Positions 3,578 through 9,830 of a stretch of DNA of 12,273 nt are shown here, piece after piece. The notes under the pieces are model-generated. The model saw only the letters and a program-made list of their open reading frames with translations, ran no database searches and was not told the origin of the DNA. Origin of the DNA: Promethearchaeati archaeon (GTDB taxonomy: Archaea > Asgardarchaeota > Heimdallarchaeia > Heimdallarchaeales > Heimdallarchaeaceae); NCBI GenBank assembly GCA_013166775.1, contig JABLTJ010000050.1:1-12273 (forward strand). Direction: 5' to 3'. The translations under genes were made by a program, and so were the position numbers. The stretch's first letter is position 1, and the number at the start of each line of letters is the position of its first letter.

Positions 3578-4861
3578 GTGATTAGCATCTCTTTAACGAC
3601 CCTTTTTGTGGCCTTAAAAAAGTCAGAAGATTGGTGGACAGTTTGGTTAGGATTGATCCTTTTCGGGGTTAGTCTATTAGGAATAATTACTACTGTGCCT
3701 AAGCCAAACCGCTGGGTTACAAATCCTTTTAACTCATTTTCTGCAGATGGGTTTATTTCTTATCTTTTGTTGACCATCATTCTACTTATTCTTCTTTCAA
3801 TATCTATCAAATCGATTCAAAATAGATTGTCAACTTTTATTCCGGCCTTTCTCCTATTTTCGATGTTAGGATTAGTTGCCCAAGTAATATCTAAACAATC
3901 TTTTGTGGGAACTTATGGTTTGGAATATGTTCTTTGGGCATTAATTATTGGATTAATAATTAGCAACACAATCGGTGTACCCGATTTTTTAATACCTGCA
4001 ATAAGAACAGAGTTATACATAAAAATAGGATTAGTGTTGTTAGGCGCTGAGATTTTATTTTCCAGAATATTAAATTTGGGAATACAAGGCCTGTTGCTTG
4101 CTTGGGGAGTAACACCTCTTGTCCTATTCCTTATGTACAAATATGGTACATCCGTCCTAAAATTGGATAAGACCCTAACAGTCCTAATGTCAGCTGCAAC
4201 CTCTGTTTGTGGAGTTTCCGCTGCTATAGCTATTGCAGCAGCAACCAAAGCTAAAAAGGAGTTTCTAACCTTAACAATTTCAATTTCTTTATTATCCACA
4301 GTAATATTACTGGTTTGTCTACCTGCTCTTGTTAGACTTGCGGGAATCGATTATATAATTGGTGGAGCTTGGATCGGGGGAACTGTTGATTCAACCGGTG
4401 CTGTTGTAGCTGCAGGAGAATTGCTGGGAGAAGAAGCAATGGAAGTAGCTACAGTAATTAAACTCATTCAAAATGTTATGATTGCTCTAATAGCATTTGT
4501 TATTGCATTTCTTTGGGTCACAAAGATTGATAGAACCTCAAATGACAAACCAGGTCTAATTCAGATCTGGTATAGATTTCCAAAATTTATAATAGGATTC
4601 GCCTTTCTTTCAATACTCTCTTCATTTGTAGTCCTACCCATAATGGGCGAAATGATGTTGACTGACATTCTTAAATTAACAGGAAGCATTCGAACTTTTC
4701 TTTTTGCAATCGCCTTTTTGAGCATAGGCCTAGAAACAGACTTCAAAACCCTTAAAACACAGATTTCCGGGGGGAAACCAGTCCAATTATATATTGTAGG
4801 TCAATCGCTAAATCTAATTCTCACATTAATCTTTGCATGGATGTTATTTGGTTCTTGGTAA
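3578..4861 (+). CDS. YeiH/UPF0324 family putative sulfate exporter, multi-pass membrane protein
   Basis: 'EDWWTVWLG', 'YIKIGLVLLGAEI', 'SVCGVSAAIA', 'GAWIGGTVDSTGAVVAAG', 'IWYRFPKFIIGF' and 'AFLSIGLET', with more than 10 hydrophobic segments. The GTG start is approximate. Confidence 0.9.
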   Translation: MISISLTTLFVALKKSEDWWTVWLGLILFGVSLLGIITTVPKPNRWVTNPFNSFSADGFISYLLLTIILLILLSISIKSIQNRLSTFIPAFLLFSMLGLVAQVISKQSFVGTYGLEYVLWALIIGLIISNTIGVPDFLIPAIRTELYIKIGLVLLGAEILFSRILNLGIQGLLLAWGVTPLVLFLMYKYGTSVLKLDKTLTVLMSAATSVCGVSAAIAIAAATKAKKEFLTLTISISLLSTVILLVCLPALVRLAGIDYIIGGAWIGGTVDSTGAVVAAGELLGEEAMEVATVIKLIQNVMIALIAFVIAFLWVTKIDRTSNDKPGLIQIWYRFPKFIIGFAFLSILSSFVVLPIMGEMMLTDILKLTGSIRTFLFAIAFLSIGLETDFKTLKTQISGGKPVQLYIVGQSLNLILTLIFAWMLFGSW

Positions 4862-4982: not shown

Positions 4983-5369
4983 TCATTCTTCTATACAATC
5001 ACATAGAAGATTATAGATTTCTTTGGAGGATTTACTGATTTCATTTGTTCTTTTTTTAATAGTTGCCTTTTTTTTCTTAATTATCCTTAATTTGGATTGT
5101 GAGCGAAAACTTATCCATATTCCAACAATTGTTAGTATACTGAAAAATGCAAAATTTAACAAATCCAAAAGAATTGATTTTTCAACAGTAAAAACTGACA
5201 ATATATATGCAATTATCGTACTCATTGTAGGACCAATAACTGTAAGTGCCAAACCGTTTCTAAATTCAGCCATTGTAGTCCTTTCTTCTGCAAGGTAATT
5301 TCTCTCCAAAGCTAATAAAGTACGGATTTTTGCTAGAACTTCTTGTTCATTAACTTCGTTCATTTTCAT
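4983..5369 (-). CDS. DUF202 (YidH-like) small membrane protein
   Basis: 'RNYLAEERTTMAEFRNGLAL' matches the DUF202 R..LA.ERT..A..R signature. Two TM helices and a basic tail follow. AAGGAG precedes the start (ATG 5369 or 5363). Confidence 0.8.
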   Translation of the reverse strand: MKMNEVNEQEVLAKIRTLLALERNYLAEERTTMAEFRNGLALTVIGPTMSTIIAYILSVFTVEKSILLDLLNFAFFSILTIVGIWISFRSQSKLRIIKKKKATIKKRTNEISKSSKEIYNLLCDCIEE

Positions 5370-5477: not shown

Positions 5478-6926
5478 CTAAATTGGAACTATTATTCTTT
5501 TTAATTCTGCAGAAACTGACTTATTTTTTTCCAAATATTCCTCAAGAGCAGATATTGCATTTATTTCCAGACTTTCACGATCTTTACCATACTTTTCTGG
5601 AACACCTTGGGTTGTAACAAAACATACGCTATACGTTTTTGACCCATTCACTCTTTTTCCATTTACAAAAAACTCTTGAATCCTCTTTCCCTCAGGATTT
5701 TCCAATTTGAAATAAATGTTTAAACCTAAACATCTTTTCACATACCCCCCCATTTGTTTGTATGGGTCACAAGAAAATGTACGTTCCAGATTCTCTTCCA
5801 TCATATCCCAAAGATCTGCTCCAGTAATTTTACAAATTGAAACTTTAGGATTAGTAGGAATGATGTTCCAAAGATCATTCAACACTATTGGTCCAGCTAC
5901 AACAGGCGCTCCGTAACGCCATCCATTAGAAAACGCTATTGTTTCTCCACTAACTTCAATCAATCCTTGAAGCAAAAAGTTATCCATTGTAGATTCCATT
6001 ACTTGGTTACGATTGAGGGCAGTTTTGGTTTTTCCTATAATAACACTTAGCATATTTCGATGATTATCTAAAGCTTTGTTAACAATAGAATCAACCGTTG
6101 GATCTGGTTTTATTGATTCTTCAACCTTGATTAATTTATGTTGAAATTTATGAATCCGACCATTCTTGACTTCAAGATCTAATCTGCCGACAAAAGAACC
6201 GTGACAACCCGACTGCATCAATATGCTACCATTTACTACTACCGCCTCATAAAGACGGTTATGAGTATGGCCACTTAACAAAACATCTATTCCATCAACT
6301 TCTTTAGCTAACTTAAACTCTTGTGGATACCCCAAATGAGATAAAACAATAATCAGATCTACTTTCTCACTTTCGCGAAGTTGCCTTATATATTTGGGTA
6401 ATTCTTTGTTTCCTAAAGTAAAGTAGATGCCTTTACTGAAATTTTTAGGCATTGTTTTATCCACAATTGTAGCTGCAATCCCAATAATTCCCACTCGGAG
6501 ATCATCAATTTCAATTATATGAAAGGCAGGAAAGACAAGTTTGTTCGATTTTTTGTAATAACAATTAATTGCAAGCATTGGAAAATTGAGCTTATCAACT
6601 ATGCCTCTAAGTTTATCGGGACCATAAGCAAATTCCCAATGCGCGGTCATTGCATCTAAAGCTAGCTCATTCAATATAGGAACTAACGCTTCACCTTTAC
6701 TATTTACTGCAAGAAATGTACCATGAAGTGTATCTCCGTTGTCAAGCACAATCACTTTTCCATTTTTTTCATTTTTTACTTCTCTGAAAATAGTTGCAAT
6801 TCTTGCGTAGCCTCCGGATTTTTTATAGACTGCCCTATCTCCAACCCAGAATAGTTCATTATGCAATTTAAAGTAGCTATGGGTGTCATTGATTTGTAAA
6901 ATTGTTAAATTCATACTCTTGGACAT
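5478..6926 (-). CDS. SoxB-like dimetal hydrolase (5'-nucleotidase/metallophosphoesterase superfamily), no signal peptide
   Basis: Metal motifs NDTH, GDTLHG, LSHLG and GHTHN. It has 'MTAHWEFAYG' (SoxB-type HWE, not nucleotidase GNHE), 'FSNGWRYG' (cf. SoxB SPGFRWG) and 'FSCDPYKQMGG' (cf. SoxB FNPDPYxQQGG). The protein starts directly at the first beta-strand. Confidence 0.85.
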   Translation of the reverse strand: MSKSMNLTILQINDTHSYFKLHNELFWVGDRAVYKKSGGYARIATIFREVKNEKNGKVIVLDNGDTLHGTFLAVNSKGEALVPILNELALDAMTAHWEFAYGPDKLRGIVDKLNFPMLAINCYYKKSNKLVFPAFHIIEIDDLRVGIIGIAATIVDKTMPKNFSKGIYFTLGNKELPKYIRQLRESEKVDLIIVLSHLGYPQEFKLAKEVDGIDVLLSGHTHNRLYEAVVVNGSILMQSGCHGSFVGRLDLEVKNGRIHKFQHKLIKVEESIKPDPTVDSIVNKALDNHRNMLSVIIGKTKTALNRNQVMESTMDNFLLQGLIEVSGETIAFSNGWRYGAPVVAGPIVLNDLWNIIPTNPKVSICKITGADLWDMMEENLERTFSCDPYKQMGGYVKRCLGLNIYFKLENPEGKRIQEFFVNGKRVNGSKTYSVCFVTTQGVPEKYGKDRESLEINAISALEEYLEKNKSVSAELKRIIVPI

Positions 6927-7029
6927 ATAATTATCCCAAATAACCTAAGGAACATAAATAGGTAAAAAGCTAATTGTGTTGTAAATCATTTTTCCTTTTT
7001 ATCGCTAAGGGAATTTAATATTTAATTCA

Positions 7030-7371
7030 TCAATTTGATTTTTTAACAATCTTTTTGATCTCTTCAGTTGCAGCTTCCAGTCTTTTAAATCCAACAATTT
7101 CTCCAATTTCTTTACTTTTCTGGAATAATTTAACAGTAGGGGTTTCTTCTACTCCAAGTCCCTCGGCAAGTCTAAGATTTTTAACACTTTCAAACATGTT
7201 AATTCTAGTAAATTTTAATCTACCACCAAAAATCTCAGAAAGCGTTTCATAAATAGGTTTGAATTTTTTACAGTTACCACAAGATTTTATCCAGAATTCG
7301 ACTACTACTGGGTTATTGGATTTAATTTCATCATCAAAATCTTCAGCCTGAATATCTACAATATTCTTCAT
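7030..7371 (-). CDS. Thioredoxin family protein (113 aa, CGNC)
   Basis: The true start is ATG 7371 (MKNIVDI...). It has 'PVVVEFWIKSCGNCKKFKP' and the cis-Pro motif 'ETPTV'. The longer ORF-track N-terminus overlaps the upstream gene in another frame. Confidence 0.9.
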   Translation of the reverse strand: MKNIVDIQAEDFDDEIKSNNPVVVEFWIKSCGNCKKFKPIYETLSEIFGGRLKFTRINMFESVKNLRLAEGLGVEETPTVKLFQKSKEIGEIVGFKRLEAATEEIKKIVKKSN

Positions 7372-7424
7372 TTCAATGAACCCAAAAGACACAGATACTG
7401 ACTTTTCCCTTCTGGTTTTTAATT

Positions 7425-7829
7425 TTATGTAAAATATCTTCCCATTACGTAAGCCCCAAGAAACATGCCAGCAATACCGATTAAAGCTGGAAGATTCCCA
7501 ATTCCAAGACTTGCCATAGCTGATCCAGGACATAACCCTGAGATTCCCCAACCTACGCCAAAAATTATTGCACCAATAATTGTCCTTTTGGTTAATGTTC
7601 GGGTTCTTTTCTTGAATACGCCACCCAATATTGGTTTTTTCAAGACTTTGGGTACAATATTGATTGTTAGTGCTGTTACTAGAGCTGATCCGCCAAGTAG
7701 TAACAGTAATCCCAGATCTTTTAATTGTAAGAAGCTTAGAACAATTTCTTGTTTTGACATTCCACCGAAGGCTAAGCCAAAACCAAAGAATATTCCCCCT
7801 ATAAACACAAAAACATGTTTTGATTTCAA
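7425..7829 (-). CDS. YeeE/YedE (thiosulfate/sulfur transporter) family half-size subunit, PmpB/DUF6691-like
   Basis: 'GGIFFGFGLAFGGM...V.SFL...D', 'GAIIFGVGWGISGLCPG' and 'GMFLG'. The probable TTG start at 7829 overlaps the upstream TGA stop (TTGA), which suggests translational coupling. Confidence 0.88.
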   Translation of the reverse strand: MKSKHVFVFIGGIFFGFGLAFGGMSKQEIVLSFLQLKDLGLLLLLGGSALVTALTINIVPKVLKKPILGGVFKKRTRTLTKRTIIGAIIFGVGWGISGLCPGSAMASLGIGNLPALIGIAGMFLGAYVMGRYFT

Positions 7830-8287
7830 GGAAATACCCCCAGACTTTGGATAACAAGTGCAGTCAATATTCCAACGGTTATGAAAGTGAGTACAGCAAA
7901 AAGTGAAGTTGTAGATAGTGACGCTAAACCGCTTATACCATGTCCAGAAGTGCACCCTTTAGAAAGTCTTGTTCCAAATCCTACAAGAAAACCCCCAATT
8001 GCAAGTCTCCACCATTCTACTGATGTTGTGAAGAAACCTTCTGCCGCTAATGTTATTGTGTAAATGAATGCACCTAAAATAACTCCTACAGCAAAGGTGA
8101 TACGCCATCCTCTAGAATCGAGATACTGTTTTTGAAGAAAGTATGGTCTTTTAGAAAAAAAGGATATTGTAGTACCAAAGAAACTGCTTTGTGTTGCATG
8201 GAGTCCTGTTACAATGTAAATAAAACTTACACCCACGCCTATTAATATTCCACCAATAATATATGGAAAAAAACCTAAGGGAAACAT
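7826..8287 (-). CDS. YeeE/YedE family half-size subunit, PmpA-like
   Basis: 'IGGILIGVG', 'WRITF..G.ILG' and 'GGFLVGFGTRLSKGCTSGHGISG'. Probable start ATG 8287 (MFPLG); alternative TTG 8314. Confidence 0.9.
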   Translation of the reverse strand: MFPLGFFPYIIGGILIGVGVSFIYIVTGLHATQSSFFGTTISFFSKRPYFLQKQYLDSRGWRITFAVGVILGAFIYTITLAAEGFFTTSVEWWRLAIGGFLVGFGTRLSKGCTSGHGISGLASLSTTSLFAVLTFITVGILTALVIQSLGVFP

Positions 8288-8374
8288 AAAATAATGTATC
8301 AATCGACTTTTCAAATAAGCTTTTGCATAACCAAAAATCTACAAAAACCAAAATCTAATAACAAATTCCATATT

Positions 8375-8391
8375 ATAATCATGATGATTAT
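8375..8391. promoter_or_regulatory. Perfect 8-1-8 inverted repeat in the divergent promoter region; candidate operator
   Basis: ATAATCAT-G-ATGATTAT sits about midway between the yeeE-like start (8287) and the MBL-rhodanese start (8460). Confidence 0.5.
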
Positions 8392-8416
8392 TTTCGATTT
8401 CCGCAGTCAATGTGAT

Positions 8417-8432
8417 AATTAATATATTAATT
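8417..8432. promoter_or_regulatory. AT-only 16-bp palindrome at the expected TATA position of the MBL-rhodanese gene
   Basis: AATTAATA-TATTAATT ends 27 nt upstream of ATG 8460. Confidence 0.4.
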
Positions 8433-8459
8433 CAATAAATTTACTAATAGGCGTTAGTT

Positions 8460-9830
8460 ATGTTGATTAAAAAAGTTAAATCTGAAGGGCTATCTCACAA
8501 TTCATATTTCGTAGGTTCAGAAAATGAAGCAATAGTAATTGATCCAAGGCGAGATTGCCAAATTTTTATAGATATAGCTCAGCAAGAAGAGATGACGATC
8601 AAAGGGATTTATGAAACACACAGAAATGAAGATTATGTGATTGGTTCTATTGAACTAGCACAACGCACTGGAGCGGGGATCTATCATGGATCAAAACTAG
8701 ACTTCAAATATGGTCAACAATTACAGGATAGACAAGAATTCTTTTTTGGAAAAATCAAATTAATTTCATTAGAGACGCCTGGCCACACAGATGAAAGCAT
8801 GTCTTATGCTTTAGCTGATCTAGACCTAAGCGAAGAACCAATAATGGTATTTACTGGAGATACATTATTTGTTGGAGACGTTGGACGCACAGACTTATAT
8901 GGACCTAATGAAGCTCAACGATTAACTGAAGCCCTTTATGATAGTATTTTTAACAAACTATTACCTCTTGGAGATGACGTGCTTATTTTTCCTGCCCATG
9001 GTGCCGGTTCAGTTTGTGGAGGAGACATAAGTCAACGAGAAGACAGCACCTTAGGAATAGAAAGAACCTTTAATCCACTTCTACAGAAAACACGAAAAGA
9101 GTTCATAAATCATAAAACTACTGAACGCCATACTCGTCCCCCTTACTTTTTAAAAATGGAAAAATATAATTTAGAAGGTCCACCAATATTCAACAAGTTA
9201 CCAACGCCCCCACCTCTTATGCCAAAAACCTTCTTAAAACAAATGAAACTCGGCGCCGTTATAGTGGACACTCGTCAACCCCCATCATTTGGTGGAGCGC
9301 ATTTAAAAAACTCCTATAGTATTTGGTTGGAAAGAATTCCTTCGTATGCAGGTTGGACTCTACCATACGATAAACCAATTCTCTTAATTTTGGAGGACAA
9401 AACTTACCTAAATAAAGCTGTTTGCTACCTTTACCGACTAGGCTATGATAATTTAACAGGATATCTTGTGGGAGGGATAGAAGGCTGGTACAAACAGTCT
9501 TTACCCTTGGAACATTTTGGGTCAATTTCTGTACATGAACTAAAAAATTGGTTAAACCAAAAAGATGACTTGTTCATATTAGATGTTAGAGAAGATGAAA
9601 AGTGGGATCAAGGGCACATCTCAGGATCTATTAATATCTTTTCAGGATACCTTGAAAACCGGATTGAAGAATTACCAAGGGGTCGCCCAATCATAGTGTT
9701 CTGCAATGTGGGAAATCGTGCTAGCTTAGCAGCAAGCATTCTGACTCGAGCAGGATTTCAAGACGTCCACAATGTGCTCGGTGGTATGATTGCTTGGAAG
9801 AACGCTGGTTATGAAATTACCACCTTATGA
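8460..9830 (+). CDS. MBL-fold persulfide-dioxygenase-like domain fused to pseudo-rhodanese and rhodanese domains (CstB-like architecture)
   Basis: 'IDPRRD', 'ETHRNED' (H54), 'TPGHT' (H109), 'FTGDTLFVGDVGRTDL' (D134) and 'PAHGAGSVCG' (C186). The middle rhodanese-like domain lacks the active-site Cys. The C-terminal rhodanese has 'LDVRE..W..GHI.GS', 'FCNVGNRA' (C415) and 'GGMIAW'. Confidence 0.92.
   Translation: MLIKKVKSEGLSHNSYFVGSENEAIVIDPRRDCQIFIDIAQQEEMTIKGIYETHRNEDYVIGSIELAQRTGAGIYHGSKLDFKYGQQLQDRQEFFFGKIKLISLETPGHTDESMSYALADLDLSEEPIMVFTGDTLFVGDVGRTDLYGPNEAQRLTEALYDSIFNKLLPLGDDVLIFPAHGAGSVCGGDISQREDSTLGIERTFNPLLQKTRKEFINHKTTERHTRPPYFLKMEKYNLEGPPIFNKLPTPPPLMPKTFLKQMKLGAVIVDTRQPPSFGGAHLKNSYSIWLERIPSYAGWTLPYDKPILLILEDKTYLNKAVCYLYRLGYDNLTGYLVGGIEGWYKQSLPLEHFGSISVHELKNWLNQKDDLFILDVREDEKWDQGHISGSINIFSGYLENRIEELPRGRPIIVFCNVGNRASLAASILTRAGFQDVHNVLGGMIAWKNAGYEITTL

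Follow-up and report, generated by a model that had tools for sequence, protein, structure and literature searches.

What does a relative of SoxB do inside a cell, without an export signal and without the SoxYZ carrier? This question is raised by a SoxB-like gene on contig JABLTJ010000050.1 of a Promethearchaeati archaeon from the Heimdallarchaeia (GenBank assembly GCA_013166775.1); the whole stretch of 12,273 nucleotides (nt) was analyzed and is named the window in the following. In a maximum-likelihood tree, the encoded protein, a member of the 5'-nucleotidase superfamily, falls into a SoxB-like sister clade outside both SoxB and the nucleotidases. We propose that it is a cytoplasmic, SoxYZ-independent hydrolase which frees sulfate from a thiol-bound S-SO3 substrate, and would put the probability of this specific reading near even; that the chemistry releases sulfate at all, be it from thiol-bound compounds or from free oxyanions, we regard as likely. 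Fold and metal site, and probably also the chemistry, are as in SoxB; it is in compartment, partners and hosts that the protein differs. Our literature searches found no description of a cytoplasmic SoxB-like enzyme or of this protein family.

Relationship to SoxB and to the 5'-nucleotidases

The family was delimited by a word-based protein search, in which 3,429 proteins, nucleotidases included, scored at E <= 0.001; the best 120 of these constitute the family proper. They are 60-98% identical to the window protein and nearly all of them comprise 471-497 residues (range 452-497). A Pfam scan of the window protein gave the generic pair Metallophos (PF00149, E = 9e-9) and 5_nucleotid_C (PF02872, E = 5e-17). 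This class, which is also that of NCBI, and the Atlas look-alikes, all of which carry generic nucleotidase names, would fit a phosphoesterase or phosphoanhydride hydrolase, i. e. a cytoplasmic nucleotidase, a polyphosphatase or an enzyme degrading adenosine 5'-phosphosulfate (APS) or its 3'-phosphorylated form (PAPS), acting on a good leaving group that needs no catalytic histidine. The best NCBIfam match, however, is SoxB (TIGR04486, profile positions 110-546 of 556) with E = 4e-102, compared to E = 2e-33 for UshA; thus, the resemblance to SoxB is far beyond chance. Thermus SoxB (2WDC, 6.6e-43) is also the closest sequence in the PDB, followed by the nucleotidase c4898 of E. coli (3IVD, 1e-31). 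The structures of Thermus thermophilus SoxB are 2WDC-2WDF and 4UWQ, the latter with SoxYZ. A fold search with the AlphaFold (AF2) model, whose predicted local distance difference test (pLDDT) value is 96.5, ranked SoxB first (2WDC/4UWQ, template modeling score 0.92-0.93), whereas closed-form nucleotidases reached 0.85-0.88.

The residues of the active site tell the two groups apart. According to the preliminary description of this DNA, HWEF replaces the nucleotidase motif NHEF, and GWRYG and DPYxQxGG parallel motifs of SoxB. These observations are borne out: in alignments with 19-24 nucleotidases and 11 SoxB representatives, His-Trp stands where nucleotidases have Asn-His; the arginine of GWRYG aligns with that of SoxB xRWG, and DPYxQxGG with SoxB DPYxQQGG. 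None of the seven metal-ligand positions (D14, H16, D65, H96, H197, H220, H222) varies among 42 family members, and the two-metal center of SoxB type is complete in the window protein. At position 96, the family and SoxB have histidine, the nucleotidases asparagine; at position 97, tryptophan takes the place of the catalytic histidine of the nucleotidases (H96/W97 in 42/42 family members, H/W in 9/11 SoxB, N/H in 18-19 of 19 nucleotidases). Likewise, family and SoxB share Asp at position 315 and Arg at position 398, where nucleotidases have Gly and Gln, respectively. Arg337 of the xRxG loop is found in all 42 family members, in 20/20 representatives of the sister clade and in 11/11 SoxB; the nucleotidase arginine lies two columns after it, within GGIR. 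In sum, the likeness to SoxB extends to the two-domain fold, the di-metal ligands, the His-Trp of motif III, GHTH, the xRxG arginine, the equivalent of Asp315, and DPYxQxGG with the arginine that follows it. With UshA, CD73 and c4898 (3IVD), the family has the Pfam domains, the overall fold including domain closure, and the metal ligands except Asn in common.

The columns of Thr358 and Tyr395 we take to be the base-stacking positions of the nucleotidases, going by UshA and CD73. At the first one (alignment column 779), nucleotidases have Phe (16) or Trp (2), the sister clade V/T/M, and SoxB threonine; the comparison with 3IVD gave the same picture. At the second one, Tyr395 is invariant in the family, Trp or Tyr is found in the sister clade, and Asp in SoxB. 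Hence the stacking pair, the retention of which would have spoken against the preliminary interpretation, is not retained: the first position is Thr358, and only Tyr395 of the pair could remain. Since the catalytic histidine of GNH(E/D) is a tryptophan in 42/42 members and the first stacking phenylalanine is missing, we consider a phosphoesterase function unlikely. On our own reasoning, tryptophan could stand in for the general-acid histidine because thiolates and persulfides can depart as leaving groups without being protonated. Three further residues, H22, E24 and W27, lie in the short segment after the DxH motif and are specific for the clade; H22 and E24 are invariant in the family and in all 20 other representatives of the sister clade, and absent from SoxB and the nucleotidases. 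The family also has three invariant cysteines (C122, C241, C399), two of which adjoin pocket residues. As a weak pointer only, the residues which contact thiosulfate in 2WDE according to a docking preprint (bioRxiv 10.64898/2026.09.20.752951) correspond, in the alignment with 2WDC, to H96/W97, H220 and the residue before R337.

A maximum-likelihood tree of 75 rows resolved three groups. Nucleotidases with GNH(E/D) form a clade of 24 rows (99% support), from which the window's family is excluded. Together with the Asn-His to His-Trp exchange and the Thr358 finding, this supports the earlier claim that the protein is no true nucleotidase. Tat-bearing SoxB representatives (Tat, twin-arginine translocation) and four other SoxB-related rows make up a SoxB group of 15 rows (96%). 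The family belongs to a third clade of 36 rows (99% in the Shimodaira-Hasegawa-like approximate likelihood-ratio test, SH-aLRT), which also contains signal-less or exported proteins with a motif III that mostly reads G-N-W-E. The proposal of a separate SoxB-like subfamily needs modification: the family is coherent, with about 482 residues, but in this tree it is not nested in SoxB and belongs to a sister clade. Forcing family and SoxB together in a reduced set of 31 rows cost 23.3 log-likelihood units (delta lnL); with p = 0.10 in the approximately unbiased (AU) test, this direct grouping is not rejected.

Compartment and candidate substrates

The lack of a twin-arginine or hydrophobic leader and the shortness of the segment after DxH in a protein of 482 residues had been noted before. 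Both features stand, and the same holds for the claim that the protein is not exported, with respect to the window protein as well as to its family. An in-frame stop 6 codons 5' of the ATG makes a longer, leader-bearing form impossible, and motif I begins at residue 12, which leaves no space for a leader. The histidine of DxH is residue 16 in the window protein, and 16 is also the median position over 119 family members. For the most hydrophobic 12-residue stretch within the first 35 residues, these members have a median Kyte-Doolittle value of 0.21 and a maximum of 1.17; the leaders of 11 Tat-bearing SoxB representatives reach 1.4-2.4, and in 11/11 a twin-arginine occurs within the first 20 residues. 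From the DxH histidine to GG, the spacing is 22 residues in the family versus 39-64 (mostly 64) in SoxB representatives. The nucleotidases UshA and CD73 are exported, and most of the nucleotidase-type representatives examined here begin with a hydrophobic leader; in this respect too, the family differs from them.

Nevertheless, the leaderless protein might leave the cell piggy-back on a partner, or be tethered to the membrane by a DUF202 protein, and act outside the cell like SoxB. In bacterial loci, the gene is indeed co-oriented and tightly packed with genes for cytochromes of the periplasm (TsdA and bd-like cytochrome c fusions). A small membrane protein (DUF202) is often encoded 3' of it. 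We regard this route as highly improbable: the 120 closest homologues do not exceed 497 residues in length, so that no leader could be accommodated, and RR occurs in the first 25 residues of only 4 of them. Moreover, the three invariant cysteines suit a reducing compartment, the archaeal hosts have no periplasm, and there is no conserved partner with a Tat signal.

No match to SoxY (PF13501) or SoxZ (PF08770) was found in the 88.7%-complete genome, while the Thermus control was positive, and no sox gene is adjacent in the window. The missing Tat leader, the missing long insert after DxH and the missing SoxYZ together argue for a substrate other than SoxY-bound sulfur. In the mechanism we propose, a terminal -SO3 group would bind at the metal pair, and the S-S(O3) bond would be hydrolyzed inside the cell according to R-S-SO3(-) + H2O -> R-S(H) + sulfate. 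Candidate substrates are Cys-S-sulfonate or an S-thiosulfonate, on a small thiol or a protein, as well as thiosulfate itself or a polythionate. ATP sulfurylase is present in the genome; a siroheme sulfite reductase domain was not found in it, which would make a sulfite-avoiding route useful.

A precedent for a SoxB homologue working without SoxYZ exists in Erythrobacter flavus 21-3. There, a homologue annotated as 5'-nucleotidase is required, together with TsdA, for the formation of sulfur globules from thiosulfate and was proposed to hydrolyze tetrathionate to sulfate and zero-valent sulfur; the same cluster encodes the MBL-rhodanese SdoA (MBL, metallo-beta-lactamase), and deleting the latter did not obviously affect how globules form (PMC7608252). 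In the window, an MBL-rhodanese is adjacent and SoxYZ was not found; TsdA accompanies our family in bacterial loci only. In contrast, the pathway of E. flavus is aerobic and, because TsdA is periplasmic, is inferred to be periplasmic as well, and the window contains neither TsdA nor cytochromes; the two systems were compared by description.

As this precedent needs no carrier, it lends support to a cytoplasmic hydrolase of free oxyanions, i. e. of trithionate, tetrathionate or thiosulfate (S2O3 + H2O -> sulfate + sulfide), rather than of thiol-bound sulfonates. Such a reading departs from the preferred one in the substrate alone. It is in agreement with the tetrathionate-making TsdA which adjoins the gene in Nitrospirota, Desulfobacterium, Smithella and Bacteroidota loci, all of them bacterial, with the YeeE-type thiosulfate importer directly upstream in the window, and with the free thiosulfate crystallized in the active site of SoxB (title of PDB entry 2WDE). 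However, TsdA and its product are periplasmic, whereas the family protein is leaderless even in TsdA-linked loci (482 residues); the archaeal loci are devoid of TsdA, and no polythionate importer is evident. We judge that free oxyanions are improbable as the actual substrates, and thiol-bound S-SO3 compounds remain our choice.

Gene neighborhood in the window and in related loci

The gene lies in a sulfur-related neighborhood, whose features are compiled in Table 1.

Table 1. Features of the window and of the SoxB-like protein (positions in nt of the 12,273-nt stretch).
Feature	Position	Strand	Remarks
YeiH-family putative sulfate exporter	3578..4861	plus	convergent with the operon; Pfam Cons_hypoth698; TIGR00698 E = 2e-28, below cut-off
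Small membrane protein, weakly DUF202/YidH-like	4983..5369	minus	downstream of the SoxB-like gene; Pfam DUF202 E = 0.005
SoxB-like di-metal hydrolase gene	5478..6926	minus	482 residues, no signal peptide; open reading frame (ORF) and translation
DPYKQMGGY-V-KRC (DPYKQMGG = residues 387-394)	5730..5768	minus	SoxB-like DPYxQxGG; Tyr395, Arg398, family-invariant Cys399
Pro357-Thr358	5853..5858	minus	Thr where nucleotidases have the first base-stacking Phe ('PF')
GWRYG (residues 335-339)	5910-5924	minus	Arg337 aligned to Arg of SoxB xRWG (HMMER versus 2WDC)
SHLG (residues 196-199) and GHTH (219-222)	6261..6341	minus	remaining metal ligands H197, H220, H222
HWEF (AHWEF; residues 96-99)	6630-6641	minus	His96 for metal-ligand Asn, Trp97 for catalytic His
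Motif II NGDTLHG (residues 63-69)	6720..6740	minus	bridging Asp65
H22-N-E24	6855..6863	minus	inside the short 22-residue post-DxH segment (conservation table)
Motif I INDTHS (residues 12-17)	6876..6893	minus	metal ligands D14, H16, invariant in all groups
A/T-rich spacer, 103 nt, thioredoxin to SoxB-like gene	6927..7029	minus	oligo-T run; TATTTATG box located roughly 35 nt upstream of the ATG
Thioredoxin, 113 residues, CGNC active site	7033-7371	minus	ends TGA TGA where relatives have Cys-Cys
Split YeeE/YedE-type transporter, C half, 134 residues	7425-7829	minus	DUF6691/Sulf_transp; TTG start overlaps the N-half stop
Split YeeE/YedE-type transporter for sulfur (thiosulfate), N half	7826-8314	minus	whole transporter 7425..8314; Pfam Sulf_transp and DUF6691
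MBL-fold and double rhodanese protein	8460..9830	plus	divergent from the operon

The YeeE-type transporter matches the thiosulfate transporter TsuA weakly. For the small membrane protein, the ortholog in the syntenic locus L002 gave a DUF202 match of E = 9.6e-5. The spacer in front of the SoxB-like gene may harbor its own promoter. Two ORFs of this region are annotation artifacts: a 275-residue 'thioredoxin fusion' (7030-7857) is an over-call of the 113-residue thioredoxin, and a 176-residue ORF (7425-7955) is an over-extension of the C half of YeeE. The predicted complex of the SoxB-like protein with the adjacent thioredoxin scored 0.00, a value which counts neither for nor against docking.

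The end of the thioredoxin gene deserves attention. On the minus strand (window 7024-7041) it reads ...K-S-N TGA TGA ATT AAA TAT TAA, whereas relatives end with ...S-N-C-C-(K/T/E)(E/D), such that the two TGA codons fall exactly on the Cys-Cys positions. A 90%-identical relative (L086) retains the tandem TGA, and two others (L091, L092) have TGA TGC at that place. Selenocysteine as an explanation was rejected for now: ARAGORN found no selenocysteine tRNA, no SepSecS was found in the genome, the best RF01852 match reaches 34 bits (threshold 47) and the best SelD match 72 bits (cut-off 125). We read the codons as stops, notwithstanding the repeated coincidence with Cys-Cys. The idea that the cysteine tail of the thioredoxins serves as a SoxY-like swinging arm was also abandoned, as the tail occurs in 31/44 loci with the SoxB-like gene and in 11/18 without it, i. 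e. there is no association.

The thioredoxin subfamily served as bait to collect 80 metagenome loci. These contain the N half of YeeE in 76 cases, the C half in 73, the MBL-rhodanese in 50, the SoxB-like gene in 45, a DUF202-like gene in 19 and YeiH in 13. In one arrangement, the SoxB-like gene shares the strand of the thioredoxin and lies downstream of it. In the other, the two are encoded on opposite strands, with the SoxB-like gene either upstream and divergent (L113, L128, L131-L133, L139 and L159) or downstream and convergent (L119). Where it is lacking, YeiH (L098, L099, L101) or the DUF202-like gene (L107, L121, L143, L152, L153) comes immediately after the thioredoxin; in L151, also without it, a spacer of about 320 nt separates thioredoxin and DUF202-like gene. 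In L094 (5330-5440), a remnant of 37 SoxB-like codons (73% identity) is left between thioredoxin and YeiH, so that a deletion seems to have been caught in progress; this shows that the core module can do without the gene. Because some loci lack the SoxB-like gene, we regard YeeE, thioredoxin and MBL-rhodanese as this core and the SoxB-like gene as a linked, facultative addition. The enzyme would accordingly be an optional complement of a module for thiosulfate import and sulfur transfer, and its sulfate would exit via the adjacent DUF202-like or YeiH-type transporters.

A tally of Pfam families among 142 neighbors from 29 de-replicated loci of the SoxB-like gene gave Rhodanese (5), DUF202 (4), MBL (4), P-type ATPase (3-4), Sulf_transp (3, plus DUF6691 2) and TauE/SafE (3) as the commonest ones. 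Compared to the 9 rhodanese domain matches in the whole 3.85-Mb genome, 5 of 142 corresponds to a roughly estimated excess of about 15-fold. TauE/SafE, DUF202 and YeiH are unrelated putative anion exporters, and their alternation beside the gene fits an anionic product which leaves the cell. The neighbors can be read in favor of a phosphoesterase too, given that an APS hydrolase would free sulfate as well and thus match the exporters, and that DUF202 shares a fold family with the polyphosphate channel of the vacuolar transporter chaperone (VTC) complex. Still, no Pho, Pst, Ppx or Ppk family is among the top 25 neighbor families, and the protein stands outside the nucleotidase clade.

In 7 bacterial loci, clear DUF202 genes stand next to the gene of the family. 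Further bacterial neighbors are TsdA-type cytochromes (9 genes in a BLAST cluster) and DsrE-like genes. In bacteria, the gene is often part of a mobile block which combines a TsdA-type cytochrome with two membrane cytochrome-c fusions, DUF202, a DsrE-like protein and an anion-binding protein; according to Pfam, an Fe/Mn superoxide dismutase and a P-type ATPase also belong to it. Universal stress proteins, a rubrerythrin-like protein, a phosphoketolase and a glucan phosphorylase were read from N-terminal sequence alone. In L026, L033, L034, L048 and L040, the block appears to be a stress island moving between phyla.

Several results weigh against the preferred reading. With 342.3 bits, the TIGR04486 score is below the curated equivalog cut-off of 550 bits, and in the tree the family groups with the 'NW'-motif proteins, not inside SoxB. 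The invariant Tyr395 occupies the second base-stacking (Phe) position of the nucleotidases, as a phosphoesterase might have it, and the Arg/metal pocket would equally accept a tetrahedral phosphate. With respect to gene context, about a third of the YeeE-thioredoxin loci that could be judged do without the SoxB-like gene, no neighbor is universal, and each sulfur-related family flanks just 10-17% of the de-replicated loci. The Methanoculleus loci display lineage synteny only (ribosomal protein S8e, HypB-like GTPase). Finally, the commonest neighbor in genome loci, adjacent in 12/80, and also in the bacterial loci, is a P-type ATPase, which has no sulfur function; the one typed example, from the second carrier genome of the class (G082), matches Ca/Mn (PMR1/SERCA) pumps below the cut-off. 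Conceivably, these ATPases are tied to manganese supply, since SoxB is a di-manganese enzyme.

Hosts of the family and implications

A scan of species-representative genomes matched at least 477 stretches that code for relatives, of which the 80 best loci were examined. Almost all of these belong to anaerobic lineages, which distinguishes the family further from SoxB, in addition to the missing leader, the shorter segment after DxH, Tyr395 in place of Asp, the clade-specific H22/E24/W27 and the three invariant cysteines. On the archaeal side, these 80 loci come from Bathyarchaeota (L002, syntenic, 84% identity), from Promethearchaeota and Hermodarchaeota, and from the methanogens Methanosarcina, Methanobacterium, Methanothrix and Methanoculleus, the latter including the cultured M. 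chikugoensis, M. nereidis, M. sediminis and M. palmolei DSM 4273. Bacterial carriers are Anaerolineae, Thermodesulfovibrionales/Nitrospirota, Desulfobacterium N47, Smithella, Bacteroidales, Clostridia and Atribacterota. The copies of Nitrospirota, Desulfobacterium and Lentimicrobiaceae are near-identical (branch lengths 0.06-0.10), which indicates recent transfer between phyla. A deltaproteobacterial contig (L039) contains two gene copies (7983-9431 and 15375-16823); one copy is broken into ORFs of 256 and 218 residues, probably by a frameshift or as a pseudogene.

Within its own class, the gene is rare: it was found in 2/83 genomes and in 0/24 other species of the genus, from which the MBL-rhodanese is absent as well. 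The GC content of the contig is 0.358, compared to 0.329 +/- 0.010 for the metagenome-assembled genome (MAG), and its tetranucleotide correlation of 0.964 (median 0.996) is the third lowest of 61 contigs. Owing to this deviating composition, the 12-kb contig is either a transferred island or mis-binned; its closest syntenic relative is labeled Bathyarchaeota, whereas the MAG's class is Asgard. In the other in-class carrier (G082; L168, C57; 2876-5683 and 8520-9737), the SoxB-like gene is divergent from the P-type ATPase, whose best match is a PMR1-type calcium pump, and a Sec23/Sec24-like gene is close to it, which suits an Asgard class. DNA of at least 99% identity across a 3.5-kb stretch was found as single contigs in two marsh runs, and most sampled words of this stretch occur in 19 sediment runs (marine, marsh and other) that belong to 12 studies. 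One sediment metatranscriptome yielded four short contigs (91-99% identity) with parts of the DUF202-like, SoxB-like and YeeE genes, at 0.10 of the sampled words and with DNA carry-over possible. On another topic, ARAGORN called a 93-nt tRNA-Pyl (anticodon CTA) on the minus strand (47450-47542) of a contig of the genome, which is either a genuine pyrrolysine tRNA or a tRNA with an intron that was called wrongly.

A bolder version of the proposal is that, by way of this family, anaerobes convert sulfite or thiosulfate to sulfate intracellularly, with neither oxygen nor a redox cofactor. First, the sulfite or thiosulfate would attack a cellular disulfide, such as oxidized thioredoxin or, in methanogens, the heterodisulfide CoM-S-S-CoB of coenzymes M and B, and the resulting S-sulfonate or S-thiosulfonate would then be hydrolyzed by the SoxB-like enzyme. 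The net reaction would be SO3(2-) + RSSR + H2O -> SO4(2-) + 2 RSH or S2O3(2-) + H2O -> SO4(2-) + H2S. We consider this bolder version quite doubtful and offer it as a speculation.

The assignment has consequences for annotation. Database labels for the family are either generic nucleotidase or SoxB, the latter being wrong by the curated cut-off. Among the best 120 proteins, IMG labels about half of its own entries 'SoxB', and members also bear the name 'S-sulfosulfanyl-L-cysteine sulfohydrolase'. If such proteins are counted as soxB, Sox-type thiosulfate oxidation is overstated in anoxic sediments. SoxB is drawn in the sulfur pathway figure of a study of Heimdallarchaeia MAGs (PMC11193907); the protein behind it may or may not be a member of this family.

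A large conserved family of methanogens, Bathyarchaeia, Asgard archaea and many anaerobic bacteria has no assigned function, and since cultured Methanoculleus species carry the gene, this function is directly testable. If our proposal is true, the release of sulfate without oxygen, haem or molybdenum would be an added step in anaerobic sulfur cycling and sulfite tolerance; if its more doubtful, bolder version were true, methanogens, Bathyarchaeia and Asgard archaea would possess an overlooked means of sulfite detoxification and thiosulfate splitting.

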